This document shows positions 12,152 to 23,543 of a stretch of 23,543 bases of DNA, piece after piece. Under the pieces are notes generated by a model. It worked only from the letters and a program-made list of their open reading frames with translations. It did no database searches and was not told the origin of the DNA. Position numbers and translations under genes: made by a program. Origin of the DNA: Atractiella rhizophila (Eukaryota); NCBI GenBank assembly GCA_021432655.1, contig MU271272.1:62001-85543 (forward strand), read 5' to 3'. Each line of letters begins with the position of its first letter. The first letter of the stretch is position 1.

Positions 12152-13021
12152 CTACTTGGTCTTCTTTTTCTTCAACTCTTCCTCCTCTTCCTTCCTAATT
12201 TTCTCCATCTCGATCTTGAATTGCTGCTTGGTATAATAATCCGCCGCCTGAAACACGAGCACGCCAGCCAAGAATAAGAGCGCAAGGAAATTACCGGCGC
12301 AAAGGACTGAGACAGTTTCCTTCCTCTCTATCTCTGAAAGAGGTTCAGTGATTGTGGCGTTCTGACCGTCGCGAGATGACTTCAGTAGGTAGTACTTAAT
12401 GGTGTTGATAATAGTGTTCTCTGGAGGTGGCATCGTCTCGTTTCGTGCGAGGTATGAGGACTCGTAAAGAAGTTTGATGTTGGGTAGAGCAACAGTTCCA
12501 TAGGCAGCAATGGCCATAATCACGAGCACTAAAGAAGCGTAAGAGGTAGGGAAGAGAGACAGGAAACGGAGCGGCGAACCAATCGACCCTCCGTCAAAAT
12601 AAAATGCGTTATCGGACCATGCTGCGAATTTGACACAGAGAGAGAGCACAAGAGCAGCAATCTACGGAACTTCTGTCTATTCCCATTCACACACGTAGTA
12701 GGAAAGAGCTCACCACGGCATGTAGGACGAGCTTTGTGACCTGAGGAGCTGTACCAACCTTTCAGACAGAGCTCAGGATACACCAGCAAGAAATTCACCA
12801 TCCCACCACATAAAGTAGAACGATTCAGCAAGGTCCACGACTTTGTCCGTTAGTGGTGGCCTGAAAAGGACGTTGACATCCACCGCAGAATTTGCCAGCG
12901 AGACACCTGCGTTCCTTCGGTCAAGAAACTTCAAACGTAAAAAAGAGATGAAATTACCCATCAGGATGCATACTGAGCTCCACACTACGACTTCCTTGAT
13001 GCCCACTTGCGAATTGTCCAT
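12152..13021 (-). CDS. SHR3: ER membrane chaperone for amino-acid permeases (Shr3/Psh3 family); 4 introns
   Basis: Spliced: SVCILMGVSLANSAVDVNVLFRPPLTDKVVDLAESFYFMWWDAPQVTKLVLHAV...FYFDGGSIVLV...VSVLCAGNFLALLFLAGVLVFQAADYY, then a charged tail ending KKKKTK. It has four TM segments and follows the yeast Shr3 pattern (FLMGV..N...D..LF; LAVIASSN..L..F.GV..LQ). Recognised from memory of the family. Confidence 0.85.
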
Positions 13022-15278: not shown

Positions 15279-16339
15279 TTACTGCTTCTTAACGAAGTCC
15301 CTAACGTTGCTGAGCCAATTGACATATTCCCTGTTCCCAAGAATTTAGAACCTCCTCTCTAATACGTGAAAAGATGACATACTTCTGTTCCTTCCAATCA
15401 CAGTACTCAGGTAAAGCTTGTGCAAGGGCTTCATCGATACCCCGCTCCTCAAGGTATGCGTAAAAGTGGCCTTGGAGCGCATCGTCCAGACTGTTGAATG
15501 CAGGAGCGTAGGGATCGAAGTCGACGTTACGGAGGATCTCTTTGCTCTTTCCCACAAGCACTTGCTCGATGACAAACACTCCATCTGTCATCACCGCCAC
15601 GTGTCAAGACTACTCCTGGGATGGAAAAGAAAGGAAAGGGCGAACCGGAAAGGGAGACTTTGAAGTTGAGAACCTCGCTGATACCCTTCTTCTCGATGGT
15701 AACGTCGATAGGTAAAGGATAAGGCTCCTGGCCCTCGAACTCTTCTTGCTCCTCAGGTAATACGTCCGTCTGTCCCCTCGCACCCATCTTCTTCTCGAGC
15801 GAAGCAGCGGGTTCCTCCTCAGCCGCAAGCTCGTCCTCGCTCATCTCCTCCTGTGGCACCTCGTCCTCGGGAATGGTGACGAGGAATTCAAGTGTGACGG
15901 TCTCATCCCCAATTGATCGCGTCAGCGTCACTTTTTCCGAAAGGGAGCTCTCGATGAACTACGTGTCACACCAACCACACCATCAGAACCACGTTTTCAT
16001 TTTTATGAAAGTAAGGAACGAACCTTCCAATCCTTCGCTAGTTCTTGCACCTTCTCAGGTACCTCTGCCTTCTCGCCACCCTCGCTCTCCTGCTCATGCT
16101 TGAACTCCGACTCCAGCTTTCGCAAGAGTTCAGGGTCGGCTGCACACGTATAACTCAGTCCAAAACACATGCAGACTTAAAGAAAATGAATACGCACAAC
16201 TGGCGGATCTGAAAGGCGTGGTAGCAAAAGTTCTGAGCTGGGGAACGACGAAGGACCTTGGAAGGGGAGTGGCGAGCCTGGCTGCTGCTCGGGGGACGAA
16301 GGCAGCGCGTGCAAGAGAGCGGGAAGCAGTCCTGAGCAT
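15279..16339 (-). CDS. MAM33: Mitochondrial acidic matrix protein, Mam33/p32 (C1QBP) family; 4 introns
   Basis: Arg-rich presequence MLRTASRSLARAAF...RTFATTPFRS, then DPELLRKLESEFKHE, VTLTRSIGDETVTLEF and an acidic loop. The C-terminal family motif is YAPAFNSLDDALQGHFYAYLEERGIDEALA...WKEQKEYVNWLSNVRDFVK. Confidence 0.93.
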
Positions 16340-16498
16340 TTTGAAGCGGAACAATGGAATATGCTATGAGATGAGCTGGAGCAGAGGCGAGAGTTGGTGG
16401 AATTTTTTGGGTGTTGTGGACACGGAACCTTGTTAGGTGGAGTGTCAACCCACCCAGTTGAGCAAACGACGAAATCAGGCTGTTTTTGGTGTTATGAT

Positions 16499-19400
16499 AT
16501 GAGTAACAGGGTAGCGCTAAGCCATTGGAGCGTGGATTACGAGGCTAGAGAGGGAGCATGGGTCTTGAAGGGCACATTTGAGGGGGTACGCATCTCGCGT
16601 CTATGAACCACAACTGGGCAGCAGTTGACTGAGATCGTGCACAACCAAAGGAGAGCCAGAAACACGCGTCCACTCCCATCGTCGAGAGGCTCGGAAGTCA
16701 CCTCGTAAAGTGCGAGAAGGGCCAGGAGTACGCGTTGATTGGCCATGGCACTTTTGAAACTTCTCGTCAGTCTTCCTGCAACTATTCCTTCCTCTATCCG
16801 CTAATGCACGACGTAGAACTGCACAGTTCCGTGATTGAAGGCTTTGCGGACGGCTTTCCAAACAATTGGGAGACAATATTGGCCAGCTCTCCCGTCTTCG
16901 TTCACGCTACTACATCAAAAGGAACAGAAAGGGACATCCTCCTCCCTTCCCGTCTCGTCTCCATCTCCCAATCTTACTCAGCTACCTCTCACCCACGTAC
17001 AACTCTCTCCACCGCACTCCAGAACCACCGTTCCCACCGCTTCGTCCCTTCCACTCTCGCAGGTGCACCACCGCCCCCTCCACCAAAACAACCGATCTAC
17101 ATCTCGCTCGATCTCTCGAGCGAAGAAGAGAGCGAGGTGGAAGTGGGAGTGAAGAAGTCTGCGGTTTCGGGGAAGAATAATGGGACGAGTCCGAGCGAGG
17201 AGAATGAGCATGAGACGCCAAACACTACGCCGCCTGTCGAACATGAGAAAGTGCTGGAAGAGGAAGTGAGTGTGCCTAAGCGTGGACGGGGGCGGCCGAG
17301 GGGATCAGGGAAGGGAAGGGGAAAGGGACAAAGGAAAGGGCTTCTAGGGGAGAAAGCAGCGGAAGTGGATCAGACAAATGAGGTCAAGTCTACAGTGCGC
17401 GTGCCCAGGGGAAGGGGAAGAGGGAGAGGAAGAGGAAGAGGAAGAGGAAGAGGGGGGAGGAGCGCGAGCGCCGTTGAGGCAGAAGTACAAGAGAGAGAAA
17501 CTGCTAAGGAGGCAGAAGAGACGAGCATCCAAGATCCCAACCTTCACCGTCACTCTCCTCAAACTCCACCTCCTCCGCCCCTCGAGTCCGAGTCACTGGA
17601 ACTTTCCGTTAATACGATGCAGGAAGCAGTGTCGGGTGCTCCAGAGCTGGAAGCTGAAGTTGACATGGATATCTCATCACCAACACCTGTGGCTGAGACC
17701 CTTCCAGCAAATGCGCCGCCCTCCCCACCACCACCAGAACCAACAGTACAGCAACGAGAGAGGTCGCTCAGCCCCATCCCCGCTAACGTCGCAGCCAAGG
17801 AATCCGCTCACATACAACCAACGGTGGAGAAAGAATTAGAGACGTCGCTACCCCCTGTCCCAACGCAGGAGGAAGTGGTGATGGAGACAGTCGTATCAGC
17901 TGAAGAGACTGGGACCACCGTCCCGGATGGCAATACGGATGCACCGAAAGAGATGGGCGATTCCGTTCAGGGCGAGGATGTGACAGCGCGAACAGATGAT
18001 GATGGAGAGGTGGAGCCCGTCACTAATCTCATGCCTGTGCCTGTCCCAGCGAGAAGAGCGACCCTCCACACCTGCCGATATGGAACTGACCCTCCCTTCC
18101 CCCCATCCTGAGCCTGAGCCGAGCCGGAAACACAAGACCTTACTCTCCCGGAGCTTCTTTCCGAACCTGAGACGGTTCTTGCTGCTACTGAAATGGAGGA
18201 GGGTGTCGCTACCACCACTGAAGCACTGCCGGAAACGGAGATCGTTCTTCCTTCTGCTGATCCGGAAGGCACCTCGCCTCCTAGGCCACAAGTAGAGCTT
18301 GAAGAAGAAAATGCGGTTCCAAGCAGGCGTGCAAGGAGCGCCGCCTTCGACGAGAATAACTTCCCTGGCACTCCAGCAACTACGATGACAGAAGACGATT
18401 TTAGTCCCTCTATCCTCCTCCTCAATCGCCCACAACCCGCTACCGCAGAAGTCACCTCACGGCGGGTACGCACACCGTCACCAACCCCGCACTCCATCGC
18501 CCGAAATCGCCACTCCCTTCCCTGCTTCAAAACGTTCTGTCAGGTTCGGCGGCTCCGAAATCCGTCACTTTGTCCCTCCTTCCACGGGAGGAACGACTGA
18601 TTCTCTCTCGTCACCCCTGTCTTCTCCCGGTTCGGGGAACGAGGTGCAATCTGGTTCGACAGCTGACGAGGCGGAGCAAGAGGAAGGAAGTCGAGGTGCA
18701 GATTGGACGGATGAGGTGGACATCGAGGACGCTCCAGTGCAGAATCAACATCAACGCGTGCGCCAGGGTATGAGAGCAGGAAGCGGAAGAGAGGTCAGGA
18801 GTCGCCAGCTCCACCACTCGCGACTTCGACGGCGCGTTTGAGGTCGAAGTCTCCAGCTCCCTCTGTCGCTAACAAGTCTCCGTCGTCGTCCCGCAAGCTC
18901 ACTAAATTGAGATCCAGACCACAAGAAGAAAAACTAACTTCGCCGCCGCGGCTGTCGAACAATTCACTGAAGGCGAAATCAAAGTCACCCCGCCGCAAGG
19001 CAGCAGAGCCCGGTCCCCTTACGTTGACGCTGAAGCAAACGAAAGATAGAGGGAAGTCGGTCCCCATCGGGCTTGTGCAGAGGATGAAGGAGAGATTGGA
19101 GAAGAACTTAAGGGAGGAAGAGGAGTCGGAGGTGCCGATGAGGAAGAAGCTGAGGTCGAATAAATGGACGAGCGGGATCGAAGGCGTGACAGCCGTCGAA
19201 CCTCCTCCCGTCCCTGTCGAGAAAGAGGCTATGGTTCCAACAGAGTTAGCGGCGATCCAAGCTCCTTCAAGCTCCTCACCGGCTCTATTCAGCTTAACAA
19301 ACGACCGCCCAGATCCCTCTTCACTGGAGGAAGAAAGGCTGCCAGATTCGGAGCCGGATCTCTTCGCTCCAGCTGCTGAGCCAAGTCCACATCCATCCCC

Positions 19401-21351
19401 GCGGAATGGGAACCCTATGCCGACACGAGAGGATGAAGGATTAGAAGATCCCGTTCCAGCCAGAGCTACTGGCCAGCTCCCAGAATCTGTATTACGAGAT
19501 GTCACTCCTGCCGAAGTCGCAGATGCACCTTTTCCCAACCCTCTCACAAACCTCGACCATCGCACAGAGGATCTCGACACGAATGCGCCTCTTGCTAGAA
19601 CAAGGGCTGAGGATCCTTTGGAGCAGGAGGTCAGCCTTGAAGAAGATGGAGGCATTCCCGGTGATGGCGCAGACGGAGTGGAGACCAGCTTCGATGATCA
19701 TGCTCTACCTTTGCCAGAGGTGGAGGTGGAAGAGGAGGCGCCATACCAATCGTCTGGCCAGTCAGAGGTTGAACAAATCCCATCCCTACCTGCAAGTTCT
19801 AACGCGAAGGAGATCACTGTGGAGGAGGAACTTCCAGAGCAGGATGCAGGGGCACAAGATCACATTGTGTCTGCGAACGATGCTCTGCCTCATGTCGCTA
19901 CCATACTAGCACCAGCCGTTGACGAAGAACCTGTACCGGAAGAGGATGATATGCAGACAACAGGAAAAGTTGGAGCAGTGGAGGTCTCGCCTACCGTTGT
20001 CAAGGTTCCTGCAGCTGTTGTCGAAGATGAGCAAGAGACAGAGGAAGAGCCCATTCTAAAGCCCCCGCGCGCACTGGTGAAAGGGAAAGGGAAACGCTTT
20101 TCCCTCCCCCTTCCCCAAGTTCACGAACCGGAAGCAGCGCAAACTCGAACACGCAAAAGGAAACGTTTCTCCCTTGGCGATGCACCAGCCATACCATCCG
20201 CTTCAAAAACACCTGTCAATCGCCGTTTATCTGCCTTTCAGCATTCTGGAGCAGACACTACTCCATCTCCTCTGTCAACCTCGACTCTCAAACGCCGTTT
20301 GGGCATCAACCCTGCAAACATTCTTCCACAGTCTTCATCGCAGACTCGAACAAGTGGCCGAAGGAGGGTGCAAACGGGAAATTGGTGGGAAATTGGACAG
20401 GAATGTGGAGCTAGGACAACAAAAGCTGATATTCAGAAACGGAAGCGGGACCAGGATGAGGATGATGCCGAGATCGAAAGGGAAGAGAGGGTTAAGAAGC
20501 GAAAACTGGAGCAGCGAAGGACGGCAAATGGGTCAGAGAAGAAGGCTGCGGGGTCGTCACTAAAGGCCATGGCTTCAAAACCATCCGGGCAACCTTTGGC
20601 GAAAAGGAAACCTCCACAGCGTCCAGCTGTTTCAGAAGAGGAAGATTCAGATAGTGACCGTCCCCGGCCTTCACCTCCCAAACATCCTAATTTCGCACTC
20701 TCACTTTCGCATCGGAAACGTCCACCTCCCCCTTCAAAACATCTGTCACATTCAGATGATGATAGCTCTCCACCTCCTTCCCCCGTAAAGTCGATAAGCA
20801 CGAAGACTACCTCAGCCAAAACACAGTTGAGCCAGCTAAAAACTATCTCATCTAAACCAAAAACCATTTTCACTGCGCCTCCTCTAAAATCGCAGAACAG
20901 TCATTCCGCTCGCAAGCCACCGATCCGCCGAACCTCTAGACAAACAGGCGCCTCCTCGTCAGGAGAGTCCTCGTCTTCGAAAGATCTCCTCGACTTAGCA
21001 GAAAAGAAAAGGACGCATATCAAAGTACTGAAACATTCTCGTCCATCGACCTCCAGAGGACAGGAAGATCAAGAATCAGAATCAGGGAATGAGACAGACT
21101 TGATGGATCTCCTTTCTGCTCAACGCAAAACGAGCGGCCATGACAATTCAAAGGAGAGCGAGAGTGAGAGTGAGGAACGTCAACCGGAGCTCTCAATCGA
21201 TGGAGTTATCCAGAGTGCTCATGCTTTTGCGAGAGGGAAGGCGAAAAGGGGTACGGTTATTTTACCCCGCGGGAGTGGCCCCGGTCGTGGGGCTGCAAGG
21301 GGAGGAAGGAAGGTGGCGCCTATGCCTCGAAGGCCGATTGCGTTGAGGTGA
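16499..21351 (+). CDS. Large SANTA-domain protein with AT-hook and CENP-C-like motif (putative KNL2/M18BP1 homolog); 2 N-terminal introns, 4 apparent frameshifts at ~18049, ~18120, ~18485, ~18738
   Basis: After removing introns 16586-16650 and 16766-16816: MSNRVALSHWSVDYEAREGAWVLKGTFEGESQKHASTPIVERLGSHLVKCEKGQEYALIGHGTFETSQLHSSVIEGFADGFPNNWETIL. This fits the SANTA pattern (L..W, G, S..IVER, G..Y.L.G, F..GFP.NW). PKRGRGRPRGS and RTSGRRRVQTGNWWEIG occur downstream; the rest is disordered E/P/S/K-rich sequence. Confidence 0.75.
17407..17460 (+). repeat. (AGAGGA)n-like coding microsatellite encoding an RG dipeptide tract
   Basis: aggggaaggggaagagggagaggaagaggaagaggaagaggaagaggggggagg translates to RGRGRGRGRGRGRGRGGR. 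Confidence 0.85.
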
Positions 21352-21698
21352 AGTTGTCTCGTTAGCCCTGTGGTGCGTTCCTCTGGTTTTTTTTGACAGC
21401 CGTCTGATCACCTTTGCCCAAACAGTTCTGCATCCAGAGTTTTGTTTGTCTCGTTCGAACGTCGAATCTTTGAGCCCATGTACGGTATCACTCGTTCCAG
21501 GCAATTTATGTATTCAATATGCGCGCAAATTGTCTACGAAATGCATTCCCTTGCACATCATGACCTCCATAATGACACCAAATGAGACGAGCCACAGTTC
21601 ATCATAACAAAACAACGCATCAGTCGCACACCAAGACAATGTTGTTACATTTCCTCTTCGTTCGCATTATAGCCTATCGAATCCAAGAATTAGGTTGA

Positions 21699-23543
21699 TT
21701 ATGAGGCATCCATGTCACCTCTCGGTTTCTCTTTGCCCTCCTCAACCTCCATCCTCGCACTTCTGCTCCCAAATTGTATCGCCCTCTTTCTCGCCCTGGA
21801 TGTCTCCACAAGTCCGAGCTGACTGGCCAAACACCTGAGGAGCAATTTATCGCCCAAGCCCTCCTCAAACCTCAAATCGCACTTCAACCAAATGGGCAAG
21901 GCATTGAGGTATTCGACCACACTGCCGTCGAGGAAGGGATACCGCACCTCCTTCCCGTGACAAGATATCACTCGATCATCCCTCCCAAGATTCCTCACCG
22001 AGATCCGATCCAAGTCGAGCTGCATCTCGTTGATGAGCGAACCCCAATCCCCTCCTAGTGTCAGGTGCGAGAGGTCACTGGGAGAGAAGGCGCGACGATG
22101 GCGCGAATATCCACCTAAGAGTTCATCTGCGCCAAGACCAGAGATGAGAACGCGAGCTTCTGATGTGTAAGGAGTTGAAACATCGGTCGATTCATCGTAT
22201 ATTGTTCCTTTCCCGCGCGCAGCGAAATAGAGGGCCATTGCTATGCTCTGTACCATATGTGTCATCAAGCGTTCATGGGAAGGGAGGGAAACGCACGAGA
22301 TCCATGACCGATTTACTAGGCCACATCAACTCCTTAACTTTCTCCTTCTCGGTCAAACTCTCCTCATAAGGCACATCAATCTCGACCAGCCTCCACTGCC
22401 TTCTTGGTCGCAGCCTCCTCAGCTCGTCAAGGCTCGAACGGGCGTTGAGACGGTCGGGAACGTCATACGGTACTAGGGCTGCGATTTCACCCCCTTCACC
22501 AGAGAGTTCAGGGGCAGGAGAAGCGATAGAACTTGGAGGAGCAGACTCCTCAATTTCGTCTAGTCGTTGTAGAGAGTTGCCGTTTAAATTGGATGGAGGT
22601 GGCTGGGCGGTGGGAAGAGGAAGTGGAGAAGGGATGAATCCTCTTATGAGTTCGTCGAAATCTATATCCATTGAGATGCCCTCCCCTCCTCCCAGTCCTC
22701 CATCTGCTTTACCGTTTCCTGCTCCTCCCCAACCCGCTGATCCTTGTCCTCTCCGTGCTCGCTCCTGAGCATTTGCTTTTGCAGCGAGTGCACGAGGATT
22801 CTCGAATGCGACGTTTAAAAGGTCCACCCCTTCTTCAGCGGGGAGAAATTTGTCGACGAGGAGAGCGAGGGTAGTACAATCTATGCCTCCTGAAAACAGG
22901 ACTGCAATTCGGGGCTCAGGCGGTTTGGGGCCGTTCAATCTCGGGACATCAGTCGTTCGCTTCCGTGTTGACTCCTCCAACACGCCAAGGAAGCCGGTTA
23001 ATGCCTGCTGGAGCTCGGGAGTGATGGTCACTGTAGATGCGTCGAGGAAGGGGAGGAGGATGTTTGGATTGGAGGGGAGCAGAGTGGACATTCGATCAAA
23101 GGGATAGATGAGAATATCTTGTGTCCGCCCTAGCGATTTTGGATGTCGGGAGTAGTGACCCATTCCTCTTTTTCCATCCACCTACACACACTCGTCAATC
23201 ACAAAATTGCGACAGAAAAAGTAGTAGGCATAAGAAGGCGAGAGGCACGCACAAGCCACGATTTACCCTTAAGATCGAGCAGATTGTAACAATGGACACA
23301 ATCAGCTGGTACCTCCTCCCAATCTCCCAACGCATACTCCTTCCTCGTGGCAGTGCTAGAAAACAATAAATAAGGGTTGACAGCCGTCGGCCTGTGCATC
23401 AATAGCGATCGTCGACCTAATGGATCCCGACCGTACAGAATCCTTTTATTATAGGATTGGAAGTAGACGAATGCGTACGGCCCCTCGATCGAGCGAAGGA
23501 TGGAAAAGAAATTGCCAGGACCTTCGGTTACGATGCGCTGGAA
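21699..23543 (-). CDS. ASNSD1: Asparagine synthetase domain-containing protein (ASNSD1/YML096W-like), 5'-truncated; 2 introns in window
   Basis: GATase-type segment IEGPYAFVYF..ILYGRDPLGRRSLL and PP-loop AVLFSGGIDC. Other motifs: DLLNVAFEN, YDVPDR, MDLSIAMALYFAARG, VLISGLGADELLGGYSRH, RNLGRDDRVI..HGKEVRYPFLD and KRAIQFGSRSARME, typical of the ASNSD1 subfamily. Confidence 0.92.

Follow-up and report, generated by a model that had tools for sequence, protein, structure and literature searches.

The DNA analyzed here, called the window below, is a stretch of 23,543 nucleotides from Atractiella rhizophila (GenBank assembly GCA_021432655.1, contig MU271272.1, positions 62,001 to 85,543), and all positions are numbered from its first letter. 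At 16499-21351, on the plus strand, the window carries a gene of three coding exons with a product of about 1576 residues. The N-terminus of this product is a SANTA domain (PF09133) as judged from its profile matches, an AT-hook follows behind it, and a CENP-C-like motif is located towards the C-terminus. This gene is probably a member of the KNL2/M18BP1 (KINETOCHORE NULL2/Mis18-binding protein 1) family, belonging to A. rhizophila or a very close strain. In animals and plants, KNL2/M18BP1 readies centromeres for the renewed loading of their specialized histone. A preliminary description of this DNA had put forward a candidate of this kind, which is supported by the SANTA match and by the layout of SANTA domain, AT-hook, and CENP-C-like motif.

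Exons, introns, and the SANTA domain

The start codon at 16499 is the earliest ATG in its frame downstream of a stop. Since the divergent MAM33-family gene begins only about 160 bp away, there is scant room for additional exons on the 5′ side. All parts of the gene lie on the plus strand. Exon 1 (16499-16585) comprises 29 codons from the ATG and is followed by intron 1 (16586-16650, 65 nt, GTACGC...AAG). Exon 2 (16651-16765), which would encode the middle of the SANTA domain, is followed by intron 2 (16766-16816, 51 nt, GTCAGT..GCTAAT..TAG). Exon 3 (16817-21351) opens with the predicted C-terminal end of the domain (16817-16875), closing with GFPNNWET, and then continues, stop-free piece by piece, through a low-complexity body rich in Pro, Ser, and Glu to the TGA at 21349-21351. 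Both coding introns carry ordinary fungal splice signals. Because intron 2 is in frame and free of stops, the open reading frame (ORF) at 16633-18111 runs through it unbroken. A short upstream ORF of two codons (ATG ATA TGA, 16494-16502) shares bases with the main start codon but is read in a different frame.

The contigs of X1, the sole public run containing this DNA, were compared with the window over 16300-21500. These contigs hold no information on strand or on transcript ends. They showed exactly three joints, corresponding to the two coding introns and to one that lies within the 3′ untranslated region. The joint 16584>16650 skipped 65 nt with GT..AG ends, and the joint 16765>16820, with three letters between its two sides, equals the removal of 16766-16816 together with one base change at 16819. 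Since the X1 contigs join across both coding introns, spliced forms exist in X1, and the two introns are removed just as the preliminary description had proposed. Further joints within the gene were absent from the X1 contigs, with all 30 of 30 depth bins covered. A candidate intron at 18466-18543 (GTACGC..CAG) was rejected, as its 78 nt are frame-neutral and an X1 contig was unspliced across it.

The third joint (21371>21425, X1 contig 8) skipped 53 nt with GT..AG ends beyond the stop codon. It corresponds, with the cut shifted by 1, to an intron at 21373-21425 (53 nt, GTGCGT..ACAG) in the 3′ untranslated region, which begins 22 nt past the stop codon. The contig with this joint is 2807 nt long and continues for about 1.5 kb, so that by its length it would enter the convergent asparagine-synthase-domain gene.

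Pfam profiles were scored on contiguous translations, piece by piece, and not on the joined spliced protein. The ORF 16633-18108, which is without exon 1 and still has 17 residues from the unspliced intron 2, matched the SANTA profile PF09133 with 27.4 bits (curated cut-off 21) and an E of 4.7e-6, with ORF residues 8-81 lying on positions 32-91 of the 92 profile positions. Since these 74 residues span 60 profile positions, the 17 residues of intron 2 are surplus to the profile. When the exons were scored alone, exon 2 matched PF09133 at profile positions 33-62 (13.6 bits) and exon 3 at positions 74-91 (16.3 bits). The two matches were colinear with the profile order, and SANTA was in each case the sole family at E up to 10. 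The SANTA domain of the preliminary description was thus recovered both above the curated Pfam threshold and separately in two exons. In the spliced product, residue 31 is the one that falls on profile position 32, and exon 1 is presumed to encode the first third of the domain, by its length fit to profile positions 1-31 only.

The nearest ESM Atlas clusters by language-model features were SANTA clusters (0.84 and 0.77), which we take as a lead only, and an ESM Atlas search limited to unnamed clusters gave no usable match. The SANTA fold consists of two small beta sheets and three helices (PDB 9R6H, human). A single-sequence AlphaFold2 model of 16651-16920, without exon 1 and with intron 2, reached a predicted local distance difference test score of 53.9. 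When this poor partial model was compared with PDB structures by Foldseek, nothing matched at E ≤0.001, the best hit being EF-P at 0.28, and the modeling outcome is uninformative on the fold. A phmmer search of the SANTA piece against PDB chains returned only unrelated matches at E 0.4 or worse, with no M18BP1 chain among them.

The CENP-C-like motif and the body of the protein

CENP-C-like motifs occur in many KNL2/M18BP1 members and are missing from the mammalian, betaKNL2, and deltaKNL2 forms. The motif in this gene, RTSGRRRVQTGNWW, is encoded at 20347-20388 on the plus strand (residues 1243-1256) and is present in a single copy. Its R-x7-WW core covers residues 1247-1256, with the Arg eight and nine residues ahead of the Trp-Trp pair, and the motif contains two of the only seven Trp residues in the whole product. 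Lys/Arg patches lie on both flanks; counting 80 residues out from the motif in each direction, Lys and Arg together number 12 on one side and 22 on the other. The pattern R-x7-[FYW]W arose in 225 of 20,000 composition-preserving shuffles of the protein. Two stricter versions of it were rarer in the shuffles (15 of 20,000 with the upstream basic and Ser/Thr residues, and 1 of 20,000 with Ser-Gly-Arg). The Arg...Trp-Trp motif named in the preliminary description is therefore present and rarer than composition predicts. A phmmer search of the motif piece against PDB chains gave 0 matches.

The CENP-C cores described as RxxxxPxxWW and RxxxxPxxYW have the same Arg-to-aromatic-Trp spacing (PMC4830207). 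In the plant CENPC-k motif, the seventh Arg and the Trp are reported as required for centromere targeting (PMC9210943), and mutating the Arg or the Trp pair is reported to abolish nucleosome binding or centromere targeting (PMC4830207, PMC9210943). Centromere targeting in plants is further described as needing basic DNA-binding regions next to CENPC-k (PMC11879092).

Read through the four frame breaks described below, with an X at each, the product has 1576 residues (Pro 11.4%, Ser 11.2%, Glu 10.9%). It is mostly of low complexity, with several Lys/Arg patches and 39 Ser/Thr-Pro sites. Pfam found no domain besides SANTA over the pieces of the gene, and on the C-terminal 878-residue ORF (18715-21348) there was no match to a cupin or CENP-C family at E up to 10. 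An AT-hook is predicted from the sequence at 17275-17307 on the plus strand (residues 221-231). Its KRGRGRPRG core (Lys-Arg-Gly-Arg-Gly-Arg-Pro-Arg-Gly) is what we take to be the AT-hook consensus. Pfam returned no AT-hook model here; GRGRP arose in 81 of 20,000 composition-preserving shuffles, so the AT-hook noted earlier likewise stands as a feature rarer than composition predicts. An Arg-Gly dipeptide repeat follows at 17407-17457 on the plus strand, encoded by a GGAAGA tandem repeat (Tandem Repeats Finder 17410-17453, period 6, 7.3 copies). The pentapeptide Lys-Arg-Phe-Ser-Leu, which resembles what we presume to be a basophilic kinase site, occurs twice (20092-20106 and 20161-20175) at a spacing of 23 residues, some 65 residues upstream of the CENP-C-like motif.

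Frame breaks, coding constraint, and genomic surroundings

A single frame is common to the long ORFs 16633-18111, 18118-18600, and 18715-21351, which are separated by TGA stops. Two pairs of frame breaks on the plus strand interrupt it, the first (18043-18123) placing the segment 18050-18115 and the second (18485-18756) the segment 18488-18754 in the +1 frame. The frameshifts mentioned in the preliminary description do occur in the window, near 18043-18049, 18116-18123, 18485, and 18756. At 18043-18049, all three spanning X1 contigs had one base fewer than the window, and at 18116-18123 the X1 contigs showed +1, −5, or −4/−1 relative to it. At 18485, in a CCCC run, X1 was one base shorter at a depth of 122.7/122.7. 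After 18756, X1 carried one additional base in three variants, T (depth 77.1), C (72), and A (44.9), at a total depth of 193.9. The window state at the four sites was found in none of the X1 depth. Since the X1 contigs do not contain the four frame breaks of the window, the gene reads continuously in X1. The breaks fall in runs of CCC and CCCC, in a GAGCC repeat, and at the site with three alternative inserted bases in X1. The five pieces between them are all stop-free.

Between 17901 and 18397, the listed X1 contigs, three in number, differed from the window by 17-33 letters in 323-446 bases. Because these contigs differ to this extent and exclude the version of the window, the organism or the sample must have more than one haplotype or paralogue of this gene.

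In total, the window and X1 differed at 163 bases, and the 40 best supported of these 163 differences were used for the constraint counts. Among these 40, 30 fell on third codon positions (binomial tail for at least 30 of 40 at p = 1/3, 8.5e-8), 27 were synonymous, and 13 nonsynonymous. In exon 2, all four listed X1 differences were synonymous third-position changes. Since the differences pile up on third positions and are mostly synonymous, the frame is genuinely coding and evolves under purifying selection, the low-complexity body included.

The word-indexed search of the ORF 16633-18108 against longer proteins yielded no homologue, and the same was true for its region 7-100. An exhaustive phmmer search of 16651-16920 against 1.84 billion proteins gave two matches, neither of them SANTA; P0001, with no Pfam family, and P0002, with Kelch-type families, were rejected as SANTA relatives. 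A metagenome scan matched 95 pattern stretches, with 0 relatives among them. The collection behind the 1.84-billion-protein library includes A. rhizophila proteins. Because the exhaustive search found no carrier, the SANTA N-terminus is in no gene model of that collection. The earlier suggestion that annotation would easily miss this gene agrees with the absence of its SANTA exons from a library drawn from a collection that holds the annotated proteins of the species.

Downstream, on the minus strand, the window contains a convergent asparagine-synthase-domain gene (Asn_synthase at 21699-22322, gene to 23543), which runs past the window end. This neighbor shares 99% identity with a protein named for A. 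rhizophila and recorded as partial, and the next match is at 63%. It bears out the earlier placement of the DNA in a basidiomycete, as A. rhizophila belongs to the Atractiellomycetes in the Pucciniomycotina (Basidiomycota). To our knowledge, the species is not a genetic model. Upstream, on the minus strand (15301-16339), is a gene of the MAM33 (mitochondrial glycoprotein) family whose N-terminus is presequence-like. It is oriented head to head with the SANTA gene, and the start codons of the two are about 160 bp apart. Farther upstream, an ORF of the SHR3 endoplasmic reticulum chaperone family (12152-12658, minus strand, 57.2 bits) is consistent with a fungus. Scans of the window for transfer RNAs and Rfam families gave 0 and 0.

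Identity of the gene and comparison with known systems

SANTA is described as present in all known KNL2 proteins (PMC11503545), and in human M18BP1 it is reported to be essential for localization and is perhaps unique to M18BP1 (PMC12953894). Since all known KNL2 proteins carry the domain and it may be confined to M18BP1, we prefer the assignment of the gene to the KNL2/M18BP1 family. By analogy with the known members, SANTA together with the CENP-C-like motif would target the protein to chromatin that already contains CENP-A. Within the motif, the Arg would bind the acidic patch of the nucleosome and the Trp pair the tail of CENP-A, in the manner of CENP-C and nonmammalian M18BP1, while the AT-hook and the basic patches could provide sequence-independent DNA anchoring as in plant alphaKNL2. 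The bound protein might then recruit Mis18 and the Scm3/HJURP chaperone, leading to the deposition of new CENP-A. The broader proposal that basidiomycetes kept a plant-type alphaKNL2 licensing factor, with SANTA and a CENP-C-like motif but without Myb, which would recognize CENP-A nucleosomes directly and bring in Mis18 and Scm3, is one that we advance tentatively, with somewhat less than even confidence. Cryptococcus, a basidiomycete, has been reported to be without the CCAN (constitutive centromere-associated network) (preprint 10.1101/2025.11.28.691167), a setting that direct nucleosome reading would fit.

Several observations weigh against the family assignment. Exon 1 scored alone had no Pfam match, and no piece of the gene matched a Myb/SANT family with Pfam at E up to 10. 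The motif has Thr in place of the conserved Pro of CENP-C and CENPC-k, and the queries, which were taken from the N-terminal part and never from the C-terminal part, gave no homologue in which the motif could be compared. The stricter patterns used in the shuffles were set after the motif had been seen. Run X1, the source of the splice joints, is not on record as RNA. Finally, the window copy carries in-frame TGA codons at 18109-18111, 18115-18117, and 18598-18600. As for the Myb/SANT domain, it is described in animal KNL-2/M18BP1 proteins (PMC8351560), and it is not universal in KNL2, as the plant descriptions name only SANTA and CENPC-k (PMC9210943).

The same stops would be expected if the window copy were a broken allele or pseudogene with real indels, and only the other haplotypes or paralogues in X1 were intact and expressed. 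This reading would also accommodate the X1 depth, which never shows the window state at the four sites, and the window haplotype, which is unseen among the three listed X1 contigs over 17901-18397. We nevertheless judge it unlikely. The indels form two pairs, each of which restores the frame, they fall at sites typical of consensus errors (CCC, CCCC, the GAGCC repeat, and the triallelic insertion), and the five pieces have remained stop-free with mostly synonymous differences from X1. Since the indels are paired in this way, lie at homopolymer, short-repeat, or polymorphic sites, and leave no X1 depth in the window state, the four frame breaks are probably consensus errors of the assembly. The missing Pro, together with the failure to retrieve a homologue in which the motif could be seen to be conserved, would also suit a general chromatin or DNA-binding factor with a genuine SANTA domain and no role in CENP-A licensing, in which the Arg...Trp-Trp stretch is incidental. 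AT-hook and Arg-Gly motifs, common among chromatin proteins, count for it as well. This explanation has a low probability in our view, given a pattern found in 225 of 20,000 shuffles that uses two of the seven Trp residues, a layout with N-terminal SANTA and a motif with basic flanks near the C-terminus like that of plant alphaKNL2, and a domain carried by all known KNL2 proteins and perhaps unique to M18BP1 (PMC11503545, PMC12953894).

Two further explanations appear highly improbable. A fungal CENP-C/Mif2 orthologue would likewise be long and disordered and carry both a CENP-C motif and an AT-hook; Mif2 has an AT-hook, and the Arg...Trp-Trp motif is of the CENP-C central-region type RxxxxPxxWW. 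Against such an orthologue, the SANTA domain occupies the N-terminus, and the C-terminal 878-residue ORF gave no cupin or CENP-C match in Pfam at E up to 10. It would be just as surprising for an orphan low-complexity protein to have matched SANTA by chance on a short stretch, even though only 60 of the 92 profile positions are covered, phmmer found no M18BP1 chain in the PDB, and the single-sequence AlphaFold model is poor. The match exceeds the curated cut-off at an E of 4.7e-6, SANTA was matched by two separate exons colinearly with no other family at E up to 10, and the ESM Atlas clusters closest in features are SANTA. The KNL2/M18BP1 assignment therefore remains the one that we carry into the comparison below, with the gene as an unannotated new member of a known family.

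KNL-2/M18BP1 has been described as absent from fungi or from the fission yeast model, and how Mis18 finds centromeres without KNL2/M18BP1 is treated as an open question (PMC8351560, PMC7618776, PMC5371998). The statement of the preliminary description that Schizosaccharomyces pombe is without M18BP1 is made in PMC5371998 and PMC7618776. Among the papers listed, our literature search found none tying KNL2, M18BP1, or SANTA to Basidiomycota; domain databases, which lay outside the search, may list such proteins. A SANTA-domain KNL2-type gene in a basidiomycete would indicate that the loss is not fungus-wide within Dikarya, and would provide a lineage in which the ancestral pathway could be set against the yeast substitutes. 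If a plant-type factor was indeed kept, the Dikarya ancestor would have had KNL2, the model yeasts would have lost it independently, and not all fungi would propagate their centromeres in the yeast manner. Short introns combined with frame errors of an assembly can hide such genes, and presence/absence tables built on predicted proteomes may under-count them. The value of the case is limited in that it concerns one gene from one fungus.

Within fungi, a described counterpart is the chytrid KNL2, which carries a CENPC-k motif (PMC9210943, citing Kral 2016 and Sandmann 2017). The chytrids are early-diverging whereas A. rhizophila belongs to Dikarya, and the two were compared by description only. 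With CENP-C/Mif2, where a motif of the R-x4-P-x2-[YW]-W type binds nucleosomes (PMC4830207), the candidate shares a putative motif of this kind in a long disordered protein. It differs from CENP-C/Mif2 in the Thr for Pro, in the absence of any cupin found, and in the presence of SANTA. Like vertebrate M18BP1, it has a SANTA domain, which is reported to be essential in human cells for centromere recruitment and CENP-A loading (PMC12953894), and its putative CENP-C-like motif recalls the CENP-C motif of the nonmammalian forms of Xenopus and chicken (PMC4830207). Unlike vertebrate M18BP1, the candidate has no detected SANT/Myb domain and carries SANTA at its extreme N-terminus instead of at residues 372-490, which leaves no room for the pre-SANTA motifs that bind CCAN.

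The predicted layout is closest to that of plant alphaKNL2 and is unlike animal M18BP1 with its Myb domain. As in Arabidopsis alphaKNL2, the SANTA domain is N-terminal and the CENP-C-like motif lies towards the C-terminus (PMC9210943, PMC11879092). The essential Arg and Trp are equally spaced in the two proteins, with the aromatic-Trp pair at +8 and +9, and basic patches flank the motif, DNA binding being described as a feature of alphaKNL2 (PMC11879092). The lack of a Myb domain in our search also agrees with plant KNL2, which is described with SANTA and CENPC-k only (PMC9210943). The candidate differs from alphaKNL2 in its length of about 1576 residues, compared with mapped regions ending near residue 598 in Arabidopsis (PMC11879092). 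Known here from its sequence alone, it also differs in having Thr for Pro and Trp-Trp for Phe-Trp, and in the AT-hook and Arg-Gly repeat behind SANTA.

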